DNA from: an uncultured delta proteobacterium | GTDB lineage: Bacteria; Desulfobacterota; Binatia; DP-6 | Direction: 5' to 3' | Length of the DNA: 64,000 nt | Assembly (NCBI GenBank): GCA_963815115.1 | Contig: CAWFFN010000012.1 | Coordinates: 576,001 to 640,000, forward strand | Shown: piece after piece, positions 16,973 through 37,798 of the stretch | Position numbering within the stretch: the first letter of the stretch is position 1 | Layout: every line of letters starts with the position of its first letter | Translations under genes and position numbers: made by a program | Notes under the pieces: generated by a model | Database searches by the model: none | The model's input: only the letters and a program-made list of their open reading frames with translations | What the model was told of the DNA's origin: nothing

Positions 16973-17068
16973 TGGCGGAGAAGGGAAGGAGTCGAACCTT
17001 CCATCCCGCACCAGGCGGGACATCGCGGTTTTGAAGACCGGTGAGGCCACCGGGCCTCTTCCTTCTCC
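16973..17068 (-). tRNA. selC: tRNA-Sec (UCA)
   Basis: Reverse complement GGAGAAGG...CCTTCTCC-GCCA 8-bp acceptor stem, 6-bp D stem GAGGCC/GGCCTC, loop CTTCAAA, long variable arm, GAAGG-TTCGACT-CCTTC T arm; 96 nt. Confidence 0.95.
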
Positions 17069-26190: not shown

Positions 26191-26814
26191 ATGGCGACCT
26201 GGGCGGCCAAGGGGCAGTACATGGAGGCGTGTAGCTGCGATTTTCTCTGTCCGTGCGTTCCAAAGAACGCGACCACGCCGGCGACCCACGATTTCTGCAA
26301 GGTCGCCCTGACGTTCGCGATCGATTCCGGACGGTACGGCGACGTCCCGCTCGACGGGGTGCGTTTCGTCTTCTTCGCGCAGTCGAAGGCCATCATGACC
26401 CACGGCGACTGGATCGGCGGGGTGGTCATCGATTCCGCCGCCAGCGACGCGCAGGCCGAGGCCGTCGGGGCCCTCGCCAGCGGCGCGGCCGGCGGTCCTC
26501 TCGGGCTGTTCGCACCCTTGCTCGGCGATTTTCGAGGCGTGCAGCGGCATCCCATCCACGTCACGCAGGACGGCCACAACGTGAGCGTCAGGATCGACGG
26601 CCTGCTCGATCAAAGCGTCGTCGGGGTCGAGAGCGTGTCGGTGCCGGGCGCGTGCGTCGCCATCGACAACACCTTCCACCCGGTGAACAAGCGGCTGAAC
26701 CTCGCCACCGCGCTGCGCAACGTGATCAGCGCCTTCGGGATCGAGTGGAAGGGAGAGCCGGGAAGGACCAACGGACACTTCGCGCCCTTCGACTGGAGGG
26801 GCGAGACTGCGTGA
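26191..26814 (+). CDS. DUF1326 domain protein
   Basis: W..KGQYMEACSCDFLCPC motif; GGAGG RBS. Confidence 0.88.
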   Translation: MATWAAKGQYMEACSCDFLCPCVPKNATTPATHDFCKVALTFAIDSGRYGDVPLDGVRFVFFAQSKAIMTHGDWIGGVVIDSAASDAQAEAVGALASGAAGGPLGLFAPLLGDFRGVQRHPIHVTQDGHNVSVRIDGLLDQSVVGVESVSVPGACVAIDNTFHPVNKRLNLATALRNVISAFGIEWKGEPGRTNGHFAPFDWRGETA

Positions 26815-27569
26815 ATGTCCGGTTCTCGCGGCTCCTGACCTTCGCCGTTCTCGTCGCGATCGGCGGGATCGCATGGGCGTTCCTGGTACGCAGCGAGGAG
26901 GCCATGACGACCATGGCGGGCGACGGGCCGATCGTCCGGCTGATGTGGCTGATGATGCGGCCGGCGGAGTTCCTGCCATACTTCTTCGCCGCGGCGCTCA
27001 TGTGGGTGATCATGATGATCGCCATGATGGTGCCTGCCGTGGTGCCGATGGTCATGGTGATGCGCGGCGTCGACGGCGGCCCGCATCGCGAGCGCGACAC
27101 GCTGCTGTTCGCCGCGGGGTATCTCATCGGATGGAGCGCGTTCGGCCTGGTGGCGGCATTCCTCCAGCTCTGGCTGCACGCCCGCGGCGTGCTCGGCGGC
27201 GATCGGCTGGCGGTCGGCGCGCTCGGCGCCGGACTGCTCCTGCTCGCGGCGGGCATGTACCAGCTCACTCCGTGGAAGGCGGCCTGCCTGCGTCACTGCC
27301 GCAGCCCGGCGAGCTTCTTCCTCGAGCACTGGTCGCCCGGTGGCCGCGGCGCTCTCGCCATGGGGCTGCGCCACGGCCTCTACTGCGTCGGCTGCTGCTG
27401 GGTGCTGATGCTGCTGATGTTCGTCGGCGGCACGATGAGCGTGCTCACGATGGCGGCGCTGTGCGCCTTCATCCTCGCCGAGCGCCTGCTGCCGGACGGG
27501 CCGTGGGTCTCGCGCATCCCCGGCACGGCGATGATCGTGTCGGGCGCGCTCTTGATTGCGTCGCGCTGA
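26811..27569 (+). CDS. DUF2182 putative metal-binding membrane protein
   Basis: MWVIMMIAMMVP, YQLTPWKAACLRHCRSP, GLYCVGCCWVLMLLMF; GTGA overlap. Confidence 0.9.
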   Translation: MNVRFSRLLTFAVLVAIGGIAWAFLVRSEEAMTTMAGDGPIVRLMWLMMRPAEFLPYFFAAALMWVIMMIAMMVPAVVPMVMVMRGVDGGPHRERDTLLFAAGYLIGWSAFGLVAAFLQLWLHARGVLGGDRLAVGALGAGLLLLAAGMYQLTPWKAACLRHCRSPASFFLEHWSPGGRGALAMGLRHGLYCVGCCWVLMLLMFVGGTMSVLTMAALCAFILAERLLPDGPWVSRIPGTAMIVSGALLIASR

Positions 27570-27577
27570 GGCGACGG

Positions 27578-27613
27578 ACCCCGGCGCCGGCCAGGAGAGC
27601 CGGCGCCGGGGGT
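27578..27613. terminator. GC-rich 13-bp hairpin, 3' of paralog copy 1 (probable bidirectional terminator or stabiliser)
   Basis: CCCCGGCGCCGGC-caggaga-GCCGGCGCCGGGG between convergent genes; no clear U-tract. Confidence 0.6.
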
Positions 27614-27640: not shown

Positions 27641-29791
27641 CTACGGCACGGCGAAGAACTGCGCGTTCCCGGGCAGGCTGAGCGAGCCCGGGCCCGGCAG
27701 ATCGGCGAGCCCGTCGAGGGCCAGGCTGCCGGTCTGCGGGATGCAGAAGTTGCTCACGAGCACGCCGGCGTGCGGCGCGCCGTCGGAGAGATCACCCGCC
27801 GGCGATCCGTTCTGCGTGATCGCCTGCGTCGCCGCCTGCCCGAAGGCGCCCGCGTGCGGCTGCGCCGGGCAGAAGAGCCCGTCGGCCGCCGTGGTCGTCA
27901 CCGGGGCCGAGGTCAGCGGGTTGAGGCTGATGGGCAGCGTGGCCACGAAGGTCCCAGGATCCGGTAGACAATCGACCGACGTCTGCGTGCTGTTGCCGGT
28001 CGTGCAGGGCTGGCCGGCGCTGGGGCCGGAGTTGCAGAACCCGCCGTCGCAGATCGGGCAGATGGTGGGCTTGCCGAGCGTCAGGTAGACGAACGACGCC
28101 AGCTCGATGTCGACCGTCGACTCGCCCGTGGCGACGTTGAGCGTCCCGCTGGCATCCTGCGCGAAGGCGTTCACCACGCAGCTCGGCGGGAAGCCGTTCA
28201 CCAGGACCGGCGGGCCGAAGTAGCAGGTCGGATCGGTCTGGCAGCCGCCCGGCGCGAAGCATGCCGAGTCGTCGGTGCACTCGACCGCCGGGTTGTTGAC
28301 GCAGTGCTTGACGGAGCCCTGCGGCCCCACCGAGCAGTCCGTCCGGCTCGTCCCCAGGCTGCCGGACAACGTCGTGCCGTCGGGGCTGTCGAGGACCGTG
28401 GTGGCGTTCTCCGGAATGATCGACGGGTTCACCGTCGCCGCGCCGCCACCGATGTAGAGGCAGCCCGCTCCGAGGTCGACGAGCTTCGTGCCGACGAGGT
28501 CGGAGTCGAGCTCACCCGAGAAGGGCGGATCGGCCGGCGTGCCGAACCCGTTCGCGCCGCAGTTGGCCGTGCCTGCGCTCGTCGTGAACGACAGGTGCTG
28601 GCCGAGCGGCGGCGGGGCGGTCGTCGTCGTCGTGCTCGTCGTGGTGGTCGTGGTGCTGGTGGTGGGCACGCTCTGCTGGCGATTCAAGTCGATCGAGAAC
28701 TGGTCGATGAGCTGCTCGAGCGGCGCGAGCTGCGTCGGCGTGCCGCACGCCTTCAAGGACGAGTTGAACGACGCGCCGGCCTTCGTCACACACGCCGGGT
28801 CCGTCGCGGTGCCGCTCTTGGCGCCCGACGAGAAGCACTTGGCGACGGCCTGGAGCTTCTTGCCGATCGACGTGAGCTTCTTGCCGAAGCAGACGTCCGG
28901 TCCCGGCGACCCGCCGGTCACGATCTGGATCGCCTGCCCGATGACGGCGTTGACCGACGCCCCGGTGGCGTCGGCGTCCGGGCTCACCAGGCAGTCGCCC
29001 TTCTTCTGCGCATTGGTGAAGCCCTTGGTCAGCGTGTCGGTCGCCTTCTGGAGACAGGCGTCGTCCACCGGCAGGCCCTTCTGGAGGGCCTTGGCGTAGC
29101 AGCTCGCGACCGCCTTCGCCTGCTTCCCGGCGGCGTCGTCGAGGCCCTGCGCGCACTTGCTCGCCGGCTGGGCCACCGACACGAAGGCGACGTTGTCCAT
29201 GCTGAAGATCTCGACCCCGAAGAAGAGATCGCCCGGCACCCCGCAGCTGTGGCTGCTGGTGACGACCACCTGCTCCGCGCCCGGCGGTGGCAGTGTGAGG
29301 GAGAGGGTCTCGCCCGCCATGTCGGCGGTCTGGGTGTCGGAGTCCAGGAGGGTGCCGTCATGCGCGAAGCCCTGGATCGTCACGATGCTGGCTCCCATGC
29401 AGTCGATCCCGAACGTCCCCGTGTCGAACTGGAAATACTGGATCGGCGGATAGAAGGTGAGGAACTCGGGCGATTGGGCGAGTCCGCCGGTGACCACCGG
29501 GAACGCGCTCAGGAAGTAGATGTTGTTCGGCAGGGAGATGTACGGCACTTCCTCGGGGTTGAACGCTGGGTTGAAGAGACCGCCGCTGTTCTGTCCGAAC
29601 CCGGCGAACTGGACTCCCCGGTTCACGTACTGGTCGGTGACGACGAGGAAAGGGATCTGCTGGTTCGGTCCGAGATCGATGTCGTCGAAGTTGACCAGCG
29701 TCGCGGTCACCGGCGGAGGCATGAGCTGCGCCCCCGCGCTACCGGCGAGCGCCGTGAGCAGCAGGGCGCTCGCGATCCGTGAGATTCTCAT
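27641..29791 (-). CDS. Secreted Cys-rich surface protein, paralog copy 1 (716 aa)
   Basis: Signal peptide, beta-rich N-domain (TLVNFDD), Cys-helical repeat, poly-Thr linker, Cys-rich C-domain. Confidence 0.9.
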   Translation of the reverse strand: MRISRIASALLLTALAGSAGAQLMPPPVTATLVNFDDIDLGPNQQIPFLVVTDQYVNRGVQFAGFGQNSGGLFNPAFNPEEVPYISLPNNIYFLSAFPVVTGGLAQSPEFLTFYPPIQYFQFDTGTFGIDCMGASIVTIQGFAHDGTLLDSDTQTADMAGETLSLTLPPPGAEQVVVTSSHSCGVPGDLFFGVEIFSMDNVAFVSVAQPASKCAQGLDDAAGKQAKAVASCYAKALQKGLPVDDACLQKATDTLTKGFTNAQKKGDCLVSPDADATGASVNAVIGQAIQIVTGGSPGPDVCFGKKLTSIGKKLQAVAKCFSSGAKSGTATDPACVTKAGASFNSSLKACGTPTQLAPLEQLIDQFSIDLNRQQSVPTTSTTTTTTSTTTTTAPPPLGQHLSFTTSAGTANCGANGFGTPADPPFSGELDSDLVGTKLVDLGAGCLYIGGGAATVNPSIIPENATTVLDSPDGTTLSGSLGTSRTDCSVGPQGSVKHCVNNPAVECTDDSACFAPGGCQTDPTCYFGPPVLVNGFPPSCVVNAFAQDASGTLNVATGESTVDIELASFVYLTLGKPTICPICDGGFCNSGPSAGQPCTTGNSTQTSVDCLPDPGTFVATLPISLNPLTSAPVTTTAADGLFCPAQPHAGAFGQAATQAITQNGSPAGDLSDGAPHAGVLVSNFCIPQTGSLALDGLADLPGPGSLSLPGNAQFFAVP

Positions 29792-30150
29792 ACGAAGCCC
29801 CCCTGACGTTGTGCAGCGTTGGACGAATGCTTCGTCGCCGGCGCGTGAGGCGCCGGCGCGATCCCCGGGGCCTCGGGTCAGGCAGCTCCCATGGGTTCAC
29901 CCTCCTGAAGGCGCCTGACCTGGATACATTCGCTGCGTGTCCCGGAGGGCTCAGCATGCGCCGCGGGCACCTTCGTCACACGAGACGGCGGGCTGGCTGC
30001 GCTCGAGCGAAGTGACAGCTTCGCCCGGTCTCCGGCTGCTTCGGGGTGAAGCCGAGCGCTCGAGATCGTCCGGGATGCACCGACGAACATGCCGTCGACA
30101 TCCCGTCGAGCCCCGGCGGAGCAGGTGGATACTGACACGTCAGTTTCCGG
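29792..30150 (-). ncRNA. Putative structured 5' leader RNA, copy 1
   Basis: Conserved in three copies with paired segments and covariation (see findings). Confidence 0.6.
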
Positions 30151-30185
30151 GGTGGCGGGTACTCCCCCTCGGAGACGGATGTCAA
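30131..30185 (-). promoter_or_regulatory. Putative promoter (TTGACA-N18-TACCCG) and palindrome ACTGAC-GT-GTCAGT, copy 1
   Basis: TTGACA at 30185-30180; palindrome at 30131-30144; both conserved across copies; -10 weak. Confidence 0.55.
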
Positions 30186-30256
30186 GCATCCTACCGCCTG
30201 GACCGAGCCACCCGGCGCGTGAACGTCGCCCATTCTCCAACGAAGTGAGGCGACGG

Positions 30257-30292
30257 ACCCCGGCGCCGGCCAGGAGAGCCGGCGCCGGGGGT
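30257..30292. terminator. GC-rich hairpin 3' of copy 2
   Basis: Identical to the 27578 hairpin. Confidence 0.6.
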
Positions 30293-30319
30293 TGGGTCGC
30301 CCAGAACCGCAGCGTGCTG

Positions 30320-32470
30320 CTACGGCACGGCGAAGAACTGCGCGTTCCCGGGCAGGCTGAGCGAGCCCGGGCCCGGCAGATCGGCGAGCCCGTCGAGGGC
30401 CAGGCTGCCGGTCTGCGGGATGCAGAAGTTGCTCACGAGCACGCCGGCGTGCGGCGCGCCGTCGGAGAGATCACCCGCCGGCGATCCGTTCTGCGTGATC
30501 GCCTGCGTCGCCGCCTGCCCGAAGGCGCCCGCGTGCGGCTGCGCCGGGCAGAAGAGCCCGTCGGCCGCCGTGGTCGTCACCGGGGCCGAGGTCAGCGGGT
30601 TGAGGCTGATGGGCAGCGTGGCCACGAAGGTCCCAGGATCCGGTAGACAATCGACCGACGTCTGCGTGCTGTTGCCGGTCGTGCAGGGCTGGCCGGCGCT
30701 GGGGCCGGAGTTGCAGAACCCGCCGTCGCAGATCGGGCAGATGGTGGGCTTGCCGAGCGTCAGGTAGACGAACGACGCCAGCTCGATGTCGACCGTCGAC
30801 TCGCCCGTGGCGACGTTGAGCGTCCCGCTGGCATCCTGCGCGAAGGCGTTCACCACGCAGCTCGGCGGGAAGCCGTTCACCAGGACCGGCGGGCCGAAGT
30901 AGCAGGTCGGATCGGTCTGGCAGCCGCCCGGCGCGAAGCATGCCGAGTCGTCGGTGCACTCGACCGCCGGGTTGTTGACGCAGTGCTTGACGGAGCCCTG
31001 CGGCCCCACCGAGCAGTCCGTCCGGCTCGTCCCCAGGCTGCCGGACAACGTCGTGCCGTCGGGGCTGTCGAGGACCGTGGTGGCGTTCTCCGGAATGATC
31101 GACGGGTTCACCGTCGCCGCGCCGCCACCGATGTAGAGGCAGCCCGCTCCGAGGTCGACGAGCTTCGTGCCGACGAGGTCGGAGTCGAGCTCACCCGAGA
31201 AGGGCGGATCGGCCGGCGTGCCGAACCCGTTCGCGCCGCAGTTGGCCGTGCCTGCGCTCGTCGTGAACGACAGGTGCTGGCCGAGCGGCGGCGGGGCGGT
31301 CGTCGTCGTCGTGCTCGTCGTGGTGGTCGTGGTGCTGGTGGTGGGCACGCTCTGCTGGCGATTCAAGTCGATCGAGAACTGGTCGATGAGCTGCTCGAGC
31401 GGCGCGAGCTGCGTCGGCGTGCCGCACGCCTTCAAGGACGAGTTGAACGACGCGCCGGCCTTCGTCACACACGCCGGGTCCGTCGCGGTGCCGCTCTTGG
31501 CGCCCGACGAGAAGCACTTGGCGACGGCCTGGAGCTTCTTGCCGATCGACGTGAGCTTCTTGCCGAAGCAGACGTCCGGTCCCGGCGACCCGCCGGTCAC
31601 GATCTGGATCGCCTGCCCGATGACGGCGTTGACCGACGCCCCGGTGGCGTCGGCGTCCGGGCTCACCAGGCAGTCGCCCTTCTTCTGCGCATTGGTGAAG
31701 CCCTTGGTCAGGGTGTCGGTCGCCTTCTGGAGACAGGCGTCGTCCACCGGCAGGCCCTTCTGGAGGGCCTTGGCGTAGCAGCTCGCGACCGCCTTCGCCT
31801 GCTTCCCGGCGGCGTCGTCGAGGCCCTGGGCGCACTTGCTCGCCGGCTGGGCCACCGACACGAAGGCGACGTTGTCCATGCTGAAGATCTCGACCCCGAA
31901 GAAGAGCGTGCCTGGCAACCCGCAGCTGTGGCTGCTGGTGATGACCACCTGCTCCGCGCCCGGCGCCGGGAAGGTGAGCGCGATGGTCTCGCCCGCCTCC
32001 GTGGCGGTCAGCGTCTGCGAGTCCAGGAGGGTGCCGTCATGGTCGAAGCCCTGGGCCGTCACGATGCTGGCCCCCGCGCAGTCCGCGCCGAGCGTTCCGG
32101 TGTCGAACTGGAAGGACTGGATCGGCGGATAGAAGGTGAGGAACTCGGGCGTCTGGGCGAGTCCGCCGGTCACCACGGGGAACGCGCTGACGAAGTAGAT
32201 CACGTTCGGCAGGGAGATGTACGGGACCGAGGCGGGGTCGAACCCCGGGTTGAACAGGCCGCCTGCGTTCTGGCCGAACCCGGCGAACTGGACCCCCCGA
32301 TTGACGTACTCGTTGGTGACGATGGGGAAGGGAATCTGCTGCCCCGGTCCGAGAGGGATGTCGTCGAAGTTGACGAGCGTCGCGGTCACTGGCGGAGGGG
32401 TGAGCTGCGCCCCCGCACTGCCGACGAGCACCGTGAGTAGCAGGGCGCTCGCGATCCGTGAGGTTCTCAT
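30320..32470 (-). CDS. Secreted Cys-rich surface protein, paralog copy 2 (716 aa)
   Basis: Start MRTSRIASA by homology to copy 1; exact 2679-bp offset. Confidence 0.9.
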   Translation of the reverse strand: MRTSRIASALLLTVLVGSAGAQLTPPPVTATLVNFDDIPLGPGQQIPFPIVTNEYVNRGVQFAGFGQNAGGLFNPGFDPASVPYISLPNVIYFVSAFPVVTGGLAQTPEFLTFYPPIQSFQFDTGTLGADCAGASIVTAQGFDHDGTLLDSQTLTATEAGETIALTFPAPGAEQVVITSSHSCGLPGTLFFGVEIFSMDNVAFVSVAQPASKCAQGLDDAAGKQAKAVASCYAKALQKGLPVDDACLQKATDTLTKGFTNAQKKGDCLVSPDADATGASVNAVIGQAIQIVTGGSPGPDVCFGKKLTSIGKKLQAVAKCFSSGAKSGTATDPACVTKAGASFNSSLKACGTPTQLAPLEQLIDQFSIDLNRQQSVPTTSTTTTTTSTTTTTAPPPLGQHLSFTTSAGTANCGANGFGTPADPPFSGELDSDLVGTKLVDLGAGCLYIGGGAATVNPSIIPENATTVLDSPDGTTLSGSLGTSRTDCSVGPQGSVKHCVNNPAVECTDDSACFAPGGCQTDPTCYFGPPVLVNGFPPSCVVNAFAQDASGTLNVATGESTVDIELASFVYLTLGKPTICPICDGGFCNSGPSAGQPCTTGNSTQTSVDCLPDPGTFVATLPISLNPLTSAPVTTTAADGLFCPAQPHAGAFGQAATQAITQNGSPAGDLSDGAPHAGVLVSNFCIPQTGSLALDGLADLPGPGSLSLPGNAQFFAVP

Positions 32471-32836
32471 ACGAAGCCCCCAGTTTGATGACGTTGTGCA
32501 GCGTTGGACGGACGATTTCGTCACCGGTGCATCAGCGCCGGGACGATGCCCCGGGCCTCGGGTCAGGCAGCTCCCATGGGGTCACCCTCCTGAAGGCGCC
32601 TGGGACCTGGACGGATCCGCTGCGTTTTCCGGAGGGCTCAGCATGCGCCGCGGGGCACCTTCGTCACGCGAGACGGCGGGCTGGCTGCGCTGGGACGAAG
32701 TGACAGCTTCGCCCAGTCTCCGGCTGCTTCCGGGTGAGGTCGACGGCTCGGCGATGTCCCGGATGCATCGGCACGCGGGCCGTAGACATCCGGCGTGGCC
32801 TCGGCGGAGCAGGTGAGTACTGACACGTCAGTTTCG
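32471..32836 (-). ncRNA. Putative structured 5' leader RNA, copy 2
   Basis: Homologous to the copy 1 leader. Confidence 0.6.
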
Positions 32837-32870
32837 GTGGCCGGTACCCCTCCTCCGAGACGGATGTCAA
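32819..32870 (-). promoter_or_regulatory. Putative promoter and palindrome, copy 2
   Basis: TTGACA at 32870-32865; ACTGACGTGTCAGT at 32832-32819. Confidence 0.55.
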
Positions 32871-32887
32871 GCATCTTCGGACGACGG

Positions 32888-32924
32888 ACCCCGGCGCCGG
32901 CCGCGAGGGCCGGCGCCGGGAGGT
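32888..32924. terminator. GC-rich hairpin 3' of copy 3
   Basis: CCCGGCGCCGGCC-gcgag-GGCCGGCGCCGGG; same stem, different loop. Confidence 0.6.
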
Positions 32925-32949
32925 CGATCGCCAGGACCGCAGCGTGTGG

Positions 32950-35079
32950 CTACGGCACGGCGAAGAACTGCGCGTTGCCGGGCAGGCTGAGCGAGCCCGG
33001 TCCCGGCAGATCGGCCAGCCCGTCGAGTGCCAGGCTGCCGGTCTGCGGGATGCAGAAGTTGCTCACGAGCACGCCGGCGTGCGGCGCGCCGTCGGTCAGA
33101 TCACCCGCCGGCGATCCGTTCTGCGTGATCGCCTGCGCCCCCGCCTGTCCGAAGGCCCCCGCATGCCCCTGCGACGGGCAGAACAGCCCGTCCGCTGCCG
33201 GGGTCGTCACCGGGGACGAGGTCAGCGGATTGAGGCTGATCGGGAGGGTGGCTACGAAGATTCCCGCGGTCGGCAGACAGTCGAGGCTCGTCTGCGTGCT
33301 GTTGTTGGTGGTGCAGGGCTGCCCGGCGTTGGCGCCCCAGTTGCAGGCACCGCCGTCGCAGATCGGGCAGACCGTCGGCTGGCCGAGGGTCAGGTAGACG
33401 AACGACGCCAGCTCGATGTCGACCGTCGACTCGCCCGTGGCCAGGTTGAGGGTTCCGCTCGCATCCTGCGCGAAGGCGTTCACCACGCAGCTCGAGGGGA
33501 AGCCGTTCACGAGGACCGGCGGCCCGAAGTAGCAGGTCGGGTCGGTCTGGCAGCCGCCCGGCGCGAAGCATGCCGAGTCGTCGGTGCACTCGACCGGCGG
33601 GTTGTTGACGCAGTGCTTGGTGGTGCCCTGCGGCCCGACGGAGCAGTCCGCCCGGCTCGTCCCCAGGCTGCCGGACAGCGTCGTGCCGTCGGGGCTGTCG
33701 AGGACCGTGGTGGCGTTCTCCGGAATGACCGACGGGTTCACCGTCGCCGCGCCGCCGCCGATGTAGAGGCAGCCCGCCCCGAGGTCGGCGAGCTTGGTGC
33801 CGACGGTGTCGGAGTCGAGCTCACCCGAGAACGGCGGATCGGGCGGGATGACACAGTTCGCCGTCCCCGCGCTCGTCGTGAACGACAGGTGCTGGCCGAG
33901 CGGCGGCGGGGCGGTCGTCGTCGTGGTGCTCGTCGTGGTGGTCGTGGTGGTGGTGGTGGGCACGCTCTGCTGGCGATTCAGGTCGATCGAGAACTGATCG
34001 ATGAGCTGCTCGATCGGGGCGAGCTGCGTCGGCGTGCCGCACGCCTTGAGAGACGAGTTGAACGACGCGCCGGCCTTCGTCACACACGCCGGGTCCGTCG
34101 CGACGCCGCTCTTCGCGGCGGACGAGAAGCACTTGGCCACGGCCTGCAGCTTCTTGCCGATGGACGTGAGCTTCTTGCCGAAGCAGACGTCCGGCCCCGG
34201 CGACCCGCCGGTCACCATCTGGATCGCCTGCCCGATGACGGCGTTGACCGCCGCCCCGGTGGCGTCGCTGTCCGGGCTGACCAGGCAGTCACCCTTCTTC
34301 TGCGCATTGGTGAAGCCCTTGGTGAGACCGTCGGTCGCCTTCTGGAGACAGGCGTCGTCCACGGGGAGCCCCTTCTGGAGCGCCTTGGCGTAGCAGCTGG
34401 CCACCGCCTTCGCCTGCTTCCCGGCGGCGTCGTCGAGGCCCTGCGCGCACTTGCTCGCCTGTTGGTCGACCGGAATGAACGCGACGTTGTCCATGCTGAA
34501 GATCTCGACGCCGAAGAAGAGCTCGCCCGGCAGTCCGCAGCTGTGGCTGCTGGTGACGACCACCCGCTCCGCGCCCGGTGGCGGCAGGGTCAGGGCGAGG
34601 GTCTCGCCCTCCACGGTGGCGGTCAGCGTCGTCGAGCCCAGGAGGGTGCCGTCATGGGCGAAGCCCTGGATGGTCACGACGCTGGCGCCCTCGCAGTCCT
34701 GCCCGAACGTGCCGGTGTCGAACTGGAAGTACTGGATCGGCGGATAGAAGGTGAGGAACTCGGGCGATTGCGCGAGGCCGCCGGTGATCACCGGAAACGC
34801 GCTCAGGAAGTAGATGTTGTTCGGCGGGGAGATGTACGGCGCCTCCCCGGGGCCGAACGATGGGTTGTAGAGCCCGCCGCTGTTCTGACCGAACCCGGCG
34901 AACTGGACGCCCCGGTTCACATACTCGTTGGTCACGACGTTGAAGGGGATCTGTCCATTCGGGTTGAGATCGTCGAAGTTGACGAGGGTCGCGGTCACCG
35001 GCGGAGAGATGAGCTGCGCCCCCGCACTGCCGGCGAGCACCGTGAGCAGCAGAGCGTTCGCGATCCGTGAGATTCTCAT
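32950..35079 (-). CDS. Secreted Cys-rich surface protein, paralog copy 3 (709 aa)
   Basis: Same architecture; AGGAG RBS. Confidence 0.9.
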   Translation of the reverse strand: MRISRIANALLLTVLAGSAGAQLISPPVTATLVNFDDLNPNGQIPFNVVTNEYVNRGVQFAGFGQNSGGLYNPSFGPGEAPYISPPNNIYFLSAFPVITGGLAQSPEFLTFYPPIQYFQFDTGTFGQDCEGASVVTIQGFAHDGTLLGSTTLTATVEGETLALTLPPPGAERVVVTSSHSCGLPGELFFGVEIFSMDNVAFIPVDQQASKCAQGLDDAAGKQAKAVASCYAKALQKGLPVDDACLQKATDGLTKGFTNAQKKGDCLVSPDSDATGAAVNAVIGQAIQMVTGGSPGPDVCFGKKLTSIGKKLQAVAKCFSSAAKSGVATDPACVTKAGASFNSSLKACGTPTQLAPIEQLIDQFSIDLNRQQSVPTTTTTTTTTSTTTTTAPPPLGQHLSFTTSAGTANCVIPPDPPFSGELDSDTVGTKLADLGAGCLYIGGGAATVNPSVIPENATTVLDSPDGTTLSGSLGTSRADCSVGPQGTTKHCVNNPPVECTDDSACFAPGGCQTDPTCYFGPPVLVNGFPSSCVVNAFAQDASGTLNLATGESTVDIELASFVYLTLGQPTVCPICDGGACNWGANAGQPCTTNNSTQTSLDCLPTAGIFVATLPISLNPLTSSPVTTPAADGLFCPSQGHAGAFGQAGAQAITQNGSPAGDLTDGAPHAGVLVSNFCIPQTGSLALDGLADLPGPGSLSLPGNAQFFAVP

Positions 35080-35354
35080 GTGAGAGCTCCTGGTTGCATG
35101 ACGTTGTGCAGCGTTTGACGAACGACTTCGTCACCGGCGCGGAGCGCCGGGCCGATTCTCCGGGCCTCGCCTCAGGCAGCTCCCATGGGGTCACCCTCCT
35201 GAAGGCGCCTGACCTGGACGGAGTCGCTGCGTTTTCCGGAGGGCTCAGCATGCGCCGCGGGCACCTTCGTCACGCGAGACGGCGGGCTGGCTGCGCTGGG
35301 ACGAAGTGACAGCTTCGCCCAGTCTCCGGTGAGTACTGCCACGTCAGTCTTCCC
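35080..35354 (-). ncRNA. Putative structured 5' leader RNA, copy 3 (lacks one ~90-nt domain)
   Basis: Homologous to copies 1 and 2. Confidence 0.6.
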
Positions 35355-35389
35355 GGTGGCGGGTACTCCTCTCGGTAGACAGGTGTCAA
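35335..35389 (-). promoter_or_regulatory. Putative promoter and palindrome, copy 3
   Basis: TTGACA at 35389-35384; ACTGACGTGGCAGT at 35348-35335. Confidence 0.5.
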
Positions 35390-35500
35390 GAACCTTGATG
35401 CGGACTCGGTGGTTATCCGTGTGCGACGCTTCCGGTGGTCGCCCAGCGATCGGCACGGACGCCGCTTCTGGCCACAGGCCCCGCGTGCTAGACGGCCCGG

Positions 35501-37798
35501 ATGTCGAAGCCGCTCGTGTATCGCGACGGGGAGCCTTTTCCCGGCCGCGCCGCCGCATCCTTGAACGAGTCCCTCCCGGCCTGGCCGGTGCCCGCGCGGG
35601 CTCCCGCGGGCGCTCCCAACGTCGTCCTGATCGTGCTCGACGACGTCGGCTTCGCCCAGCTCGGCTGCTTCGGCTCGGACATCGACACGCCACGTTTCGA
35701 TGGGCTCGCGGCGGACGGCCTGCGCTACCGCAACTTCCACACCACGGCGATGTGCTCGCCGACCCGCGCCTGTCTTCTCACGGGACGCAATCACCACACC
35801 TGTGCCATGGGCGGGATCACCGACCTCTGCATGGGGTTCCCCGGCTACAACGGGCGCATCCCGAAGTCGTGCGGGTTCGTCTCCGAGGTGCTCCGCCAGG
35901 CAGGGTGGGCGACGTTCGCCGTCGGCAAGTGGCATCTCGCTCCCTCCGACGAGCAGCATGCCGCCGCGCCGCGTGATCGCTGGCCGCTCGGGCAGGGCTT
36001 CGAGCGCTACTACGGGTTCATGGGCGGCGAGACCAACCAGTTCGCGCCCGACCTGGTGTGCGACAACTCGCCGGCACGGTTCACGCCGCGCGACGGCTAC
36101 CATCTCACCGAGGACCTCGTCGATCATGCGATCCAGCGCGTGACCGACGTTCGCACGGCCGATCCCGACAAGCCGTTCTTCCTCTACCTGGCGCTCGGTG
36201 CGTGCCATGCGCCGCATCAGGCGCCGCCCGAGTGGATCGAGCGGCACCGTGGGCGCTTCGACGGGGGCTGGGATGTGTGGCGCGAGCGCACGCTGGCGCG
36301 CCAGATCGCCGCCGGCATCGTTCCGCCCGGCACCACGCTGTCGGCCCGTCCGTCGTGGGTACAGGAGTGGGCCGCGCTGCCGGCGGACGAGCGGCGCGCC
36401 TACTCGCGCATGATGGAGGTCTACGCTGGCTTCCTGTCGCACACCGACCATCACGTCGGCCGCCTGCTCGATTTCCTCGCCACGAGCGGCGAGCTCGACC
36501 GCACGCTCGTCCTCGCGCTCAGCGACAACGGGGCGAGCGCGGAGGGCGGCGCCCAGGGCACGTTCAACGAGAACTTCATCTTCAACGGCCTGCCGCACGA
36601 CGTCGAGGCGACCCGTGCCATGCTCGACAAGCTGGGCAGCGCACAGACCTACGGACACTACCCGTGGGGATGGGCGCTGGCCGGGAACACGCCGTTCCGT
36701 CGCTGGAAGCGCGAGACGCACGAGGGCGGCATCGGCGATCCGCTGATCGTGCGCTGGCCGGCGATCGCCGACCGCGGCGCGGTACGCGCGCAGTACGTCC
36801 ACGCCATCGACGTGGCGGCGACCGTTCTCGACGTCACGGGCACCGAGATGCCGGCGTTGCTGAACGGCGTGCCGCAGGAGCCGCTGGCCGGCGCCAGCTT
36901 CGCCCGCTCGCTCACAGACGCGGCCGCACCGGAGCACCGCGAGACGCAGTACTACGAGCAGTTCGCCTGCCGCGCCATCTACCATCGTGGCTGGAAGGCC
37001 GTGACGTACCACGCGATGATGGATGGACTGTACACCGACGAGGACGATCCCGATCGGCCCTTCGACCAGGACCGCTGGGAGCTCTACCACGTCGCCGAGG
37101 ATCCCTCCGAGTCGCACGACCTCGTGGCGGCGGAGCCGGAGAAGCTGCGCGCGCTGCAGGAGCTGTGGTGGAGCGAGGCGGGGCGCTACGGGGTGCTGCC
37201 GCTCCAGTCGCGACGCATGTTCGCCGTCGGGCGGCCGCATGCGGTGCGGCCGCGCGAGCGGGTCGTGCTGCGATCGGGCGCCGCGCCTCTGCCCGAGGAT
37301 CTGGCGCCGAACGTCAAGATGCGGCCGCACCGGATCATCGCCGACGTCGAGATCGCCAGCGGCAGCGAGGGCGTCCTCGTGGCCCAGGGCGGTCGCTTCG
37401 GGGGCTTCAGCCTGTACCTGCACGGCGGGCGCCTGCACTACACCACCAACTTCGCCGGCATCGAGCGCACCACCGTTTCGAGCCCGCAGCCGCTCGCTCC
37501 CGGGCGTCACCTTCTGGGTGTCGCGCTCGAGCCCGCCGGCGGCATGGGCATGCGTGCCGAGCTGGTCGTCGGGGACCGGGTGGTCGCCGTGGCCGAGGCG
37601 GCGCGCACGGCGCCGTTCCGCTTCGCCCTCGCCGGCGAGGGTCTCTGCTGCGGCTACGACGACGGCACGCCCGTGGCGGACGTCTACGAGTCGCCCTTCG
37701 CGTTCACCGGAACGATCCACGAGGCGGTGATCGACGTCTCCGGCATGCCGGTGGTCGATCTGGTGGCGGAGCTGCGGCGCGCGTGGATGACCCAGTGA
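35501..37798 (+). CDS. Arylsulfatase (formylglycine-dependent)
   Basis: LDDVG, CSPTR..LLTGR, GKWHL, SDNG, HEGG. Confidence 0.95.
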   Translation: MSKPLVYRDGEPFPGRAAASLNESLPAWPVPARAPAGAPNVVLIVLDDVGFAQLGCFGSDIDTPRFDGLAADGLRYRNFHTTAMCSPTRACLLTGRNHHTCAMGGITDLCMGFPGYNGRIPKSCGFVSEVLRQAGWATFAVGKWHLAPSDEQHAAAPRDRWPLGQGFERYYGFMGGETNQFAPDLVCDNSPARFTPRDGYHLTEDLVDHAIQRVTDVRTADPDKPFFLYLALGACHAPHQAPPEWIERHRGRFDGGWDVWRERTLARQIAAGIVPPGTTLSARPSWVQEWAALPADERRAYSRMMEVYAGFLSHTDHHVGRLLDFLATSGELDRTLVLALSDNGASAEGGAQGTFNENFIFNGLPHDVEATRAMLDKLGSAQTYGHYPWGWALAGNTPFRRWKRETHEGGIGDPLIVRWPAIADRGAVRAQYVHAIDVAATVLDVTGTEMPALLNGVPQEPLAGASFARSLTDAAAPEHRETQYYEQFACRAIYHRGWKAVTYHAMMDGLYTDEDDPDRPFDQDRWELYHVAEDPSESHDLVAAEPEKLRALQELWWSEAGRYGVLPLQSRRMFAVGRPHAVRPRERVVLRSGAAPLPEDLAPNVKMRPHRIIADVEIASGSEGVLVAQGGRFGGFSLYLHGGRLHYTTNFAGIERTTVSSPQPLAPGRHLLGVALEPAGGMGMRAELVVGDRVVAVAEAARTAPFRFALAGEGLCCGYDDGTPVADVYESPFAFTGTIHEAVIDVSGMPVVDLVAELRRAWMTQ

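Follow-up and report, generated by a model that had tools for sequence, protein, structure and literature searches.

A modular 5' control region with a conserved two-hairpin RNA domain precedes secreted-protein genes in uncultured soil bacteria

The three non-coding regions that precede the secreted-protein paralogs in the window (the whole stretch of 64,000 nucleotides analyzed here) are copies of a modular 5' control region known from a limited number of uncultured soil bacteria with high G+C content. The parts follow each other in the order putative promoter and 14-bp operator, an RNA domain of about 100 nt (hereafter D1), and a strong first Shine-Dalgarno site (SD1) that is located 25-61 nt further on and leads into either the gene itself or a mini-ORF; in the mini-ORF-type leaders, a stretch of G+C-rich hairpins (about 100 nt) comes next, after which the gene has a second ribosome binding site of its own. 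Directly observed are the individual parts and the order in which they are arranged, as well as their conservation and the covariation within the D1 hairpins. The best reading of this arrangement, to which we assign a probability of about one half, is a lineage-specific cis-regulatory leader that acts on SD1, with the mini-ORF as a relay. The RNA motif is new, and the general kind to which such a leader belongs is already known.

Leaders of the three paralogs

The genes and the insert discussed in this section are located as follows.

27641-29791, minus strand: gene copy 1, 716-aa secreted cysteine-rich protein with no assigned family
30320-32470, minus strand: gene copy 2, 716 aa
32950-35079, minus strand: gene copy 3, 709 aa
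30044-30130, minus strand: insert of copy 1, holding the swap stem 30071-30105 (read from the sequence)
about 32732-32818, minus strand: insert of copy 2, with the swap stem 32759-32793 (from the alignment)

The initial annotation described conserved, structured leader RNAs upstream of three secreted-protein paralogs. The translations indeed contain typical signal peptides, and the upstream regions are alignable and near-identical from about 250 nt before each start codon. From D1 to the start codon, the three leaders are 86-90% identical, compared with 90-96% for the coding sequences and 78-94% for four-fold sites; to judge from these values, the likeness of the leaders is what recent gene duplication appears to yield. 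Given that leader identity is comparable to that of the coding and four-fold sites, conservation among the three copies alone proves little. The complementary segments listed in the annotation are present in the sequence, and its compensatory swap between the stems 30071-30105 and 32759-32793 is confirmed, the second pair reading G-C in copy 1 but C-G in copy 2; it falls within the insert of about 87 nt that the alignment places in copies 1 and 2 only and not in copy 3. The 381-nt leader of copy 1 has a folding z-score of -2.34, with 2 of 100 shuffles folding equally well.

The D1 domain

D1 was delineated in all three leaders with a covariance model.

29943-30043, minus strand: D1 copy 1, covariance model score 81.2 bits (R1) and 67.5 bits (R2)
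29999-30032, minus strand: hairpin A of D1 copy 1, hexaloop 30013-30018
29955-29989, minus strand: hairpin B of D1 copy 1, 13-nt loop 29966-29978
32630-32731, minus strand: D1 copy 2, covariance model match
35237-35337, minus strand: D1 copy 3, covariance model match

The alignment of 24 sequences from paralogs, related genomes and metagenomes reveals a fold of two hairpins with nearly invariant loops that differ from each other in sequence (6 nt in hairpin A, 11-13 nt in hairpin B). Paired cells amount to 86.3%, against 78.0% in shuffles, and 16 of the 23 pairs show double changes, against 8.4 expected, with none of 500 shuffles reaching the observed values; these measures are inflated by the relatedness of the aligned sequences and by the fitting of the alignment to the model. 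Slid registers of the model all score far lower. Both sides change in 12 of 14 pairs of hairpin A and in 4 of 9 pairs of hairpin B, and in one copy (L072) hairpin B is rebuilt as a fully paired helix. Of 8 single-sequence folds, all contain hairpin A and 4 contain hairpin B in its modelled form. Thermodynamically, D1 yields z-scores between +0.76 and -5.48 (for D1 alone, -0.47 in copy 1 and -1.14 in copy 3). The D1 RNA is real and conserved, and it combines covarying helices with conserved unpaired nucleotides, as riboswitches generically do.

Thus, covariation is found in the larger set of homologs for the D1 core, and the earlier notion of a structured leader holds for a conserved core, but not for the fold that had been proposed for it, since the homologs support another one. 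For the three nested stems originally drawn in D1, paired cells in the 24 homologs amount to 62.3%, against 60.3% in shuffles, and double changes occur in 4 pairs, against 3.8 expected.

Distribution and genomic context of D1

The covariance model identifies 9 D1 copies in this genome, so that the description of the leader as triplicated, correct for the window, was an undercount. There are 3 further copies in a related genome (G002), 2 in another (G003) and 1 in a third (G008); altogether D1 is present in 4 of 25 genomes of the family, and soil metagenome contigs contain 8 full matches and 1 truncated match. In one source, a protein of one of the relatives carries the label Candidatus Binatia. 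Among 150 sampled other genomes of the phylum, only one weak match was detected, and a model of hairpin B only (R3) added just the known leader L107 and two weak matches (E ~0.015). Two sequences that match the model, L101 and L103, were excluded from the alignments, their scores and lengths being identical to those of L067 and L065, as was L092 (32 bits, within coding-like DNA). L101 and L103 come from a set of six pattern matches in genome contigs, of which the other four (Pseudonocardia, two Streptomyces and Gemmatimonadales) are not matched by the model and were taken as chance.

A search of the whole window against Rfam 15 at the gathering score identifies tRNA-Sec alone. Positions 29600-35600 searched at E up to 10 yield five weak matches, none covering D1, SD1 or the mini-ORF, and eight other leaders searched at E up to 1 yield one weak, unrelated match, so that the leader core, as initially stated, matches no known family in these searches. 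No published description of the motif was found in the main text of papers on Binatota/Binatia and riboswitches or RNA.

D1 is retained between paralogs with only 56-69% protein identity, precedes unrelated genes for NHL-repeat proteins, and is also found inside operons and after genes, away from 5' ends. The top-scoring copies, L065 from G002 and L078 from this genome, have neither SD1 nor a paralog behind them; in the two species they form an island of about 92% identity within unalignable surrounding DNA, following an orthologous alpha/beta-hydrolase gene.

SD1 and the four-codon mini-ORF

29900-29905, minus strand: SD1 of copy 1, first Shine-Dalgarno site
29878-29892, minus strand: mini-ORF of copy 1, Met-Gly-Ala-Ala, four codons and TGA
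32585-32590, minus strand: SD1 of copy 2, with the mini-ORF at 32563-32577
35194-35199, minus strand: SD1 of copy 3, with the mini-ORF at 35172-35186

The purine-rich segment reported in the initial annotation is present, but its apparent role as a ribosome binding site for a conserved four-codon mini-ORF had been missed. SD1 follows D1 at the distance given above in 19 of the 23 copies. In 4 of these 19 (C5a, C5b, L093 and L083), SD1 directly starts the long ORF, and therefore D1 is placed where a translational regulator would be. In the mini-ORF-type leaders, the distance from SD1 to the gene start is 112-204 nt. The mini-ORF consists of four codons and a stop in the three window copies as well as in C7a, C7b, C8, C9a, C9b, L072, L082, L084, L089, L095 and L107, and of four or five codons, depending on the choice between two adjacent ATGs, in L085 and L088. 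Codons 3 and 4 are variable; the start codon and the in-frame stop are kept, with non-ATG starts in two leaders (ATA in G003; GTG one codon earlier, giving five codons, in G008). Genome-wide, the SD1 pattern followed by ATG and exactly three codons has 15 matches, 8 of them paralog leaders, compared with 2-7 matches for other mini-ORF lengths.

Four D1 copies lack SD1, and because two of them belong to the conserved island after the alpha/beta-hydrolase gene, D1 may act without SD1. The other two (L071 and L074) adjoin decayed gene remnants, so that this gene family appears to lose the downstream part often.

Putative promoter and predicted TetR-type operator

30180-30185, minus strand: putative -35 hexamer (consensus) of copy 1, with an 18-nt spacer to the -10-like hexamer 30156-30161
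30131-30144, no strand assigned: predicted operator of copy 1, 14-bp palindrome, one position off the perfect form, shortly after the -10
32819-32832, no strand assigned: predicted operator of copy 2, 1 mismatch; -35 hexamer 32865-32870
35335-35348, no strand assigned: predicted operator of copy 3, 2 mismatches, abutting D1; -35 hexamer 35384-35389

The same -35 hexamer, spacing and TA-initial -10 precede the operator in other paralog leaders and in relatives. A strict sigma-70 promoter scan produces no match, and hence we treat the promoter as putative. The palindrome occurs at 12 sites with at most 2 mismatches in the 6.9-Mb genome, 8 of them perfect, against 0 sites for a reversed-pattern control; the sites directly follow a -35/-10 pair, and most D1 copies have one upstream. 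Two sites precede TetR genes outside the window (C8:358804 and C7:865200), each encoding a TetR_N domain; the best full-length matches among solved structures are TetR proteins of the fatty-acid-regulator type, at only E ~1e-8. Over-representation of the palindrome and its location at promoters, including those of TetR genes, point to the operator of a TetR-family repressor. Since transcription is predicted to start at the operator, D1 would be part of the transcript. The 5' part of each region initially taken as leader RNA is the putative promoter and TetR-type operator, which had been overlooked.

Downstream hairpins, gene products and 3' ends

29837-29857, minus strand: G+C-rich 8-bp hairpin of copy 1, no T-run, in minimum-free-energy folds
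29822-29836, minus strand: small hairpin of copy 1, no T-run, in minimum-free-energy folds
29798-29803, minus strand: second ribosome binding site (G-run) for the long ORF of copy 1 (read from the sequence)
27581-27609, no strand assigned: 3' palindromic hairpin of copy 1, specific to the gene family
30260-30288 and 32891-32919, no strand assigned: 3' palindromic hairpins of the other two paralogs, specific to the gene family

The two leader hairpins of copy 1 correspond to those of the initial annotation. G+C-rich hairpins occur at the same place in other leaders but share no common aligned structure: the consensus of 12 leaders from SD1 to the gene start contains only a local 3-bp stem without covariation. 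Four candidate switch pairings were examined, and none shows excess complementarity or covariation, in tests whose power is low in G+C-rich sequence. For a kissing interaction between loops A and B, and for a linker-tail helix, the pairs are either invariant or poorly paired and do not covary; a helix closing D1 between its 5' flank and 3' tail has a duplex energy of -11.19 for cognate and -11.09 for non-cognate strands, with 919 of 2000 permutations equalling it; the D1 tail against the pyrimidine stretch before SD1 gives a mean z of -0.26 (11 of 14 leaders matching the pattern); and masking of the second ribosome binding site by sequence from the mini-ORF onward gives a mean z of +0.15 in 15 leaders, only copies 1 and 3 leaning that way. 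The pseudoknot-like complement and the pairing near the second ribosome binding site are confined to the near-identical window copies; the suggested pseudoknot and control through pairing at the gene's own ribosome binding site find no support, in view of this mean z and the lack of a common structure in 12 leaders. Of the proposed cis-regulatory RNA, the conserved structured leader stands; the qualifier riboswitch-like remains a guess, with neither a ligand clue nor a mutually exclusive pairing behind it.

The secreted paralogs match no Pfam family and have no usable Atlas match. A Foldseek search started with the predicted structure of one paralog (pLDDT 83.9) identifies weak beta-sandwich matches resembling carbohydrate-binding modules (E ~1e-4, TM by query at most 0.15). 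The downstream genes, which encode Pfam-less secreted proteins and NHL-repeat proteins, give no hint of a ligand. The secreted-protein genes frequently recombine and decay. The 3' hairpin is present 11 times in the genome, each time directly after a paralog; in the C8 cluster, the promoter and D1 precede only the first of three tandem paralogs, and family-specific hairpins lie between the genes.

Proposed mechanism and alternative explanations

Under the preferred reading, a ligand or protein bound by D1 would set the rate of initiation at SD1, and translation of the mini-ORF would relay the state of D1 to the long ORF, possibly through ribosome-driven remodelling of the downstream hairpins or through protection of the transcript. 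A bolder version, put forward tentatively as possible rather than probable, is that D1 either functions as the aptamer of a riboswitch class not described before or is recognized by a novel RNA-binding regulator, and that it is limited to uncultured Binatia-like soil bacteria, with its output through the fixed four-codon mini-ORF; together with the TetR repressor at the same promoters, it would form a two-layer sensor for a rapidly diversifying secreted-protein regulon.

Bacillus has stabilizing leaders with a Shine-Dalgarno-like element far upstream, and the leaders described here could likewise hold a ribosome, by means of their 5' hairpins, a strong ribosome binding site and a minimal ORF well ahead of the gene, and so protect a highly expressed secreted-protein mRNA from decay, with no sensing involved. 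The long distance from SD1 to the gene start, the minimal mini-ORF with its variable residues and the switch pairings not detected in the tests are compatible with this explanation, as are the secreted nature of the gene products and the 3' hairpin particular to this gene family, an indication that mRNA ends are under selection. We consider it rather unlikely, however, given that in 4 of 19 copies the gene itself is initiated from SD1, that D1 also occurs in operons and after genes and not at the 5' end, and that the conserved loops of 6 and 11 nt exceed the needs of a protective hairpin. An action of D1 on transcription, that is, processive antitermination at the G+C-rich hairpins that occur in the leader and separate tandem paralogs, or attenuation involving those hairpins, would fit two adjacent hairpins close to a promoter, the mini-ORF followed by G+C-rich hairpins, and the single promoter and D1 serving three tandem paralogs in the C8 cluster; it is improbable because all these hairpins lack a T-run, so that a terminator role is only putative, every window copy has its own promoter and D1, and the fixed closeness of D1 and SD1 is left unexplained.

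Equally doubtful is a standalone RNA module, one that binds or sequesters a protein or another RNA or at which processing takes place, and for which proximity to SD1 is secondary. The best-scoring copies in the island have neither SD1 nor a paralog, and hairpin loops that are conserved typically contact a protein or RNA, but 19 of 23 copies do carry SD1 at 25-61 nt, and two of the exceptions (L071 and L074) are beside decayed genes. Finally, the leaders could have no RNA function at all, their likeness reflecting gene duplication or conversion and the hairpins being incidental in DNA of 70% G+C. That the window leaders are no better conserved than coding DNA, that half of the single-sequence z-scores are unremarkable and that the family often recombines and decays all fit this null explanation, which nevertheless appears very improbable: D1 is kept across divergent paralogs and before unrelated NHL-repeat genes, its stems change on both sides while the loops stay constant, it forms an island of conservation amid non-conserved DNA, and the mini-ORF keeps its start and stop while the inner codons vary.

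If D1 is a sensor, as in the preferred reading, it would represent a new regulatory RNA class from a phylum-level lineage without a cultured model and a clean natural case of an RNA domain acting via a minimal upstream ORF of fixed length. The known distribution (4 of 25 family genomes and soil contigs) is narrow and therefore limits the general reach. The operator, D1, SD1, mini-ORF and 3' hairpin define a regulon of expanded, recombining secreted proteins and give direct handles for testing what induces them.

Comparison with known systems

Guanidine-II (mini-ykkC) riboswitches consist of two hairpins with the same conserved tetraloop, and the loops meet on ligand binding. Like them, D1 is a small element in which two hairpins lie side by side, their stems covary and their loops are conserved, and a ribosome binding site follows closely. 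It differs in that its loops, of 6 and 11-13 nt, are unlike each other and their possible pairing is invariant, without covariation; with no shared tetraloop and no Rfam match, assignment to a guanidine-II-like riboswitch was rejected. In ANTAR-target RNAs, each of two short hairpins has a hexaloop that follows a fixed pattern, and the second hairpin overlaps with a terminator or a ribosome binding site. This candidate was rejected too: of the two D1 hairpins, A alone carries a hexaloop, whereas B has a loop of 11-13 nt and its end is 25-61 nt away from SD1, and there is no Rfam match. An amino-acid leader-peptide attenuator, whose peptide would be rich in codons for the regulating amino acid and which would alternate between terminator and antiterminator structures, does not agree with a mini-ORF of four codons in which residues 3-4 vary freely, nor with hairpins that are not T-run terminators.

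A documented precedent for the proposed order of events is provided by metE and ppe2 of Mycobacterium tuberculosis, where a riboswitch controls a short upstream ORF and, through it, the gene (PMC11260477). In both cases a structured leader domain is followed by a short ORF, which is translated and modulates the gene in M. tuberculosis and would do so here, and one of the controlled mycobacterial genes, like those described here, has a product of uncertain function that belongs to an expanded family. The mycobacterial sensor is described in the same source as a cobalamin riboswitch, a known class, whereas D1 matches no Rfam family, cobalamin included; furthermore, the ORF of the system predicted here has a fixed length of four codons and is separated from the gene by about 100 nt.

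TetR-family systems likewise have a palindromic operator over the promoter start region, before the TetR genes themselves (autoregulation) and before their targets; for the operator predicted here, the candidate repressor genes are located outside the window. Stabilizers of the Shine-Dalgarno type share with these leaders a near-perfect site more than 100 nt before the gene start and the location ahead of a secreted-protein gene. In the leaders analyzed here, in contrast, a conserved start codon after this site opens a reading frame of four codons that ends in a stop, and a conserved two-hairpin domain precedes the site.

Organization of the leaders and distribution of the D1 domain

The source genome of the window (G000, 6.9 Mb) encodes about 15 full-length paralogs of a 716-amino-acid secreted protein (56-100% identical), and their upstream regions contain three recurrent modules, each of which was tested separately: an RNA domain of about 100 nucleotides (D1), a putative promoter with an operator, and a Shine-Dalgarno site (SD1) followed by a short open reading frame (mini-ORF). 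Three paralogs belong to the window, and their upstream regions were inspected by eye and aligned:

27641-29791, minus strand: copy 1 gene
30320-32470, minus strand: copy 2 gene
32950-35079, minus strand: copy 3 gene

The three window leaders are near-identical starting about 250 nt before the start codons, and copies 1 and 2 contain an extra segment of about 87 nt that is absent in copy 3. The complementary segments listed in the initial annotation, which described a structured, probably pseudoknotted leader, can be read directly in these sequences, and the compensatory swap reported there (30071-30105 versus 32759-32793) is genuine and maps to the extra segment. The genes are 90-96% identical in coding sequence (78-94% at four-fold sites) and the leaders, from D1 to the start codon, are 86-90% identical; likeness among the window leaders alone counts for little because these genes are recent duplicates.

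Covariance models of D1, the first built from 11 copies and refined from 23, identify D1 in 4 of the 25 genomes of the family (nine copies in G000, three in G002, two in G003 and one in G008). Model R1 yields one additional weak match, in G022, and a sample of 150 other genomes of the phylum yields a single weak match. An exact-pattern scan retrieved 16 metagenome contigs, with D1 complete in 8 and truncated in 1; the contigs listed all come from soil-type records. A second pattern scan retrieved six genome-contig records, two of which match the D1 model and four of which do not. The initial annotation could assign the leader to no known family, and indeed Rfam 15 has no family matching D1 or any other part of the leader. 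The distribution of D1 is narrow, which limits the general reach of these findings.

Structure of D1

The model-fitted alignment of 24 sequences resolves D1 into two hairpins. In hairpin A, a stem of up to 14-15 pairs closes a nearly invariant hexaloop, with changes on both sides at 12 of 14 pairs. Hairpin B has 9 modelled pairs, 4 of them with changes on both sides, in a helix interrupted by two conserved C-C mismatches, and a nearly invariant loop of 11 nt (13 nt in the window copies); in one leader, L072, the entire helix, both mismatch positions included, is rebuilt from Watson-Crick or wobble pairs. Paired cells amount to 86.3% versus 78.0% in shuffled alignments and double-change pairs to 16 versus 8.4 expected, not one observed measure is reached in 500 shuffles, and pairing is 30-48% in slid registers; this covariation comes from related sequences in an alignment that is itself structure-fitted and includes near-identical members (the three window copies, L093/L083, L082/L095 and L088/L085). 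When eight sequences are folded singly, all eight show hairpin A and four show hairpin B in its modelled form, with z-scores from +0.76 to -5.48; for the whole copy 1 leader the z-score is -2.34. The three nested stems originally proposed for the D1 stretch do not rise above shuffles when counted on the same 24-sequence alignment.

SD1 and the mini-ORF

A conserved element is located 25-61 nt downstream of D1 in 19 of the 23 D1 copies: a stretch of pyrimidines and, after a short spacer, a near-perfect Shine-Dalgarno site. The next ATG starts a long ORF in four of these (C5a, C5b, L093 and L083), and the next start opens a mini-ORF in the other 15.

Mini-ORFs following SD1 (C-numbers, loci of G000; L-numbers, individual leader or contig sequences)
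Four codons and TGA: the three window copies, C8, C7a, C7b (counted from the better-spaced ATG), L072, L082, L084, L095
Four codons and TAG: L089
Four or five codons (two adjacent ATGs as alternative starts): L085, L088
Four codons after ATA: G003
Five codons, start GTG: G008

All three window mini-ORFs encode Met-Gly-Ala-Ala; across the set, Gly or Arg occupies the second position, and the third and fourth are variable. Across G000, 15 sites have the SD1 pattern with an ATG, exactly three further codons and a stop behind it, and 8 of these sites belong to paralog leaders; control lengths of 1, 2, 4, 5 and 6 codons give 2, 5, 2, 3 and 7 occurrences. SD1 with a four-codon mini-ORF is also found at C9a, C9b and L107 without a match to the D1 model, L107 retaining a hairpin-B-like element. 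The gene start follows SD1 by 112-140 nt (about 200 nt in three cases); in between come G+C-rich hairpins, which are those of the initial annotation, followed by the ribosome binding site of the gene itself.

Putative promoter and operator, and TetR-family regulators

The upstream module comprises a consensus -35 hexamer, a spacer of 17-18 nt, a -10-like hexamer beginning with TA and, 2-13 nt further, a 14-bp palindrome, the putative operator. Because a strict sigma-70 scan finds no promoter, we infer the promoter and transcription start from this conserved arrangement. G000 has eight perfect operators and four with 1-2 mismatches, the three in the window being among the latter; across the family, perfect sites number eight in G000, four in G003, two in G002 and one in G013, and the reversed-pattern control has none. 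Two operator sites precede TetR-family genes (Pfam TetR_N; C8:358804 and C7:865200), and others precede secreted-protein paralogs and an alpha/beta-hydrolase gene. Most D1 copies have an operator upstream, at 0-200 nt or, where a TetR gene intervenes, at 700-780 nt. The operator-linked TetR regulator has four close paralogs in G000, none of them in the window. Two further close paralogs of it, adjoining each other (49-50% identity), are encoded at C9:891816-892493 (plus strand) and C9:892622-893308 (minus strand), with no perfect operator listed nearby.

By eye, five bases of the copy 1 hexaloop (30013-30018) equal five bases of one half-site of the operator at 30131-30144, so that within the transcript the loop would be complementary to the remaining half-site; the match may be coincidental.

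Proposed mechanism and alternatives

We observe the parts of the leader, the order in which they stand and the D1 hairpins. The best-supported reading, to which we give roughly even odds (about 0.5), combines an operator gate, control of initiation by D1 and a relay through the mini-ORF. A TetR-type regulator at the operator would gate transcription; the transcript would contain D1, to which a ligand or protein would bind; bound D1 would set initiation at SD1; and, in leaders whose SD1 serves the mini-ORF, translation of the latter would pass this state on to the gene. We infer the transcription, binding and relay steps. Systems of this kind, in which a structured cis-acting leader is combined with an upstream ORF and an operator for a repressor, are already known. 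Riboswitch-plus-uORF control, documented in Mycobacterium tuberculosis (PMC11260477), is analogous to the proposed mechanism. Rfam contains neither the D1 family nor its coupling to a fixed four-codon ORF, and the literature searches yielded no description of them.

An alignment of 12 leaders downstream of the mini-ORF reveals no common structure apart from a local stem of 3 bp at SD1, and none of four candidate pairings linking D1, SD1, the mini-ORF and the second ribosome binding site exceeds controls. A leader that stabilises the mRNA or loads ribosomes is a possible but unlikely explanation of the same modules, and control of transcription read-through by the leader is improbable.

Four D1 copies lack SD1. 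Two of these (L071 and L074) adjoin decayed paralog fragments. The other two, L078 (G000, C5:465962-466058) and L065 (G002, L065:1501-1599), are orphans located behind an orthologous alpha/beta-hydrolase gene, without a downstream SD1 or paralog, and form an island of about 92% identity within otherwise unalignable intergenic DNA. No D1 copies score higher than these orphans, suggesting that the domain can be retained in its own right. That D1 is an autonomous RNA module is as improbable as read-through control, and a complete lack of function is the least probable of all.

Genes downstream of the leaders, and 3' hairpins

The 716-amino-acid proteins contain signal peptides, as judged by reading of the translations, and match no Pfam family; their relatives are unnamed soil-metagenome proteins, one of them labelled Candidatus Binatia bacterium. 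In a confident structure model (pLDDT 83.9), an N-terminal beta-sandwich is followed by a helical region rich in cysteine, then by a Thr-rich linker and finally by a beta-rich domain at the C terminus; the only likeness found is a weak one to sandwiches of the carbohydrate-binding-module type. The leader is also found upstream of NHL-repeat proteins in metagenome contigs and, in G002, of a further, unassigned secreted protein.

Several loci contain decayed members of the gene family: a 56-amino-acid ORF in which a signal peptide is joined to the last ~30 residues (L085:657-824), a C-terminal gene fragment fused directly to D1 (L074:1501-1900) and a pseudogene fragment separating D1 from the next paralog (L071:1600-2100). 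Recombination and loss of internal parts are frequent in this family.

Each paralog ends in a palindromic hairpin that is specific to the family and whose two 10-nt arms are identical; G000 has 11 of these hairpins, always directly after paralogs, and their sequence is conserved even among distant paralogs. The window contains three:

27581-27609: 3' hairpin
30260-30288: 3' hairpin
32891-32919: 3' hairpin

This element, which has a weak sub-threshold Rfam match to a miRNA family, may be a family-specific terminator or 3' stabiliser.

Other features of the window are the following:

26253-27569, plus strand: neighbouring gene, convergent with copy 1, that encodes a PpoB2 copper-chaperone domain
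35501-37798, plus strand: sulfatase gene, divergent from copy 3
32977-33066, plus strand: weak Rfam Cyano-2 match (E = 0.0023; 26 bits, gathering score 40), antisense to the 3' end of gene copy 3 and judged a chance hit
16977-17068, minus strand: gene for selenocysteine tRNA (Rfam tRNA-Sec, 65.8 bits); selenoprotein synthesis is presumably a trait of this organism
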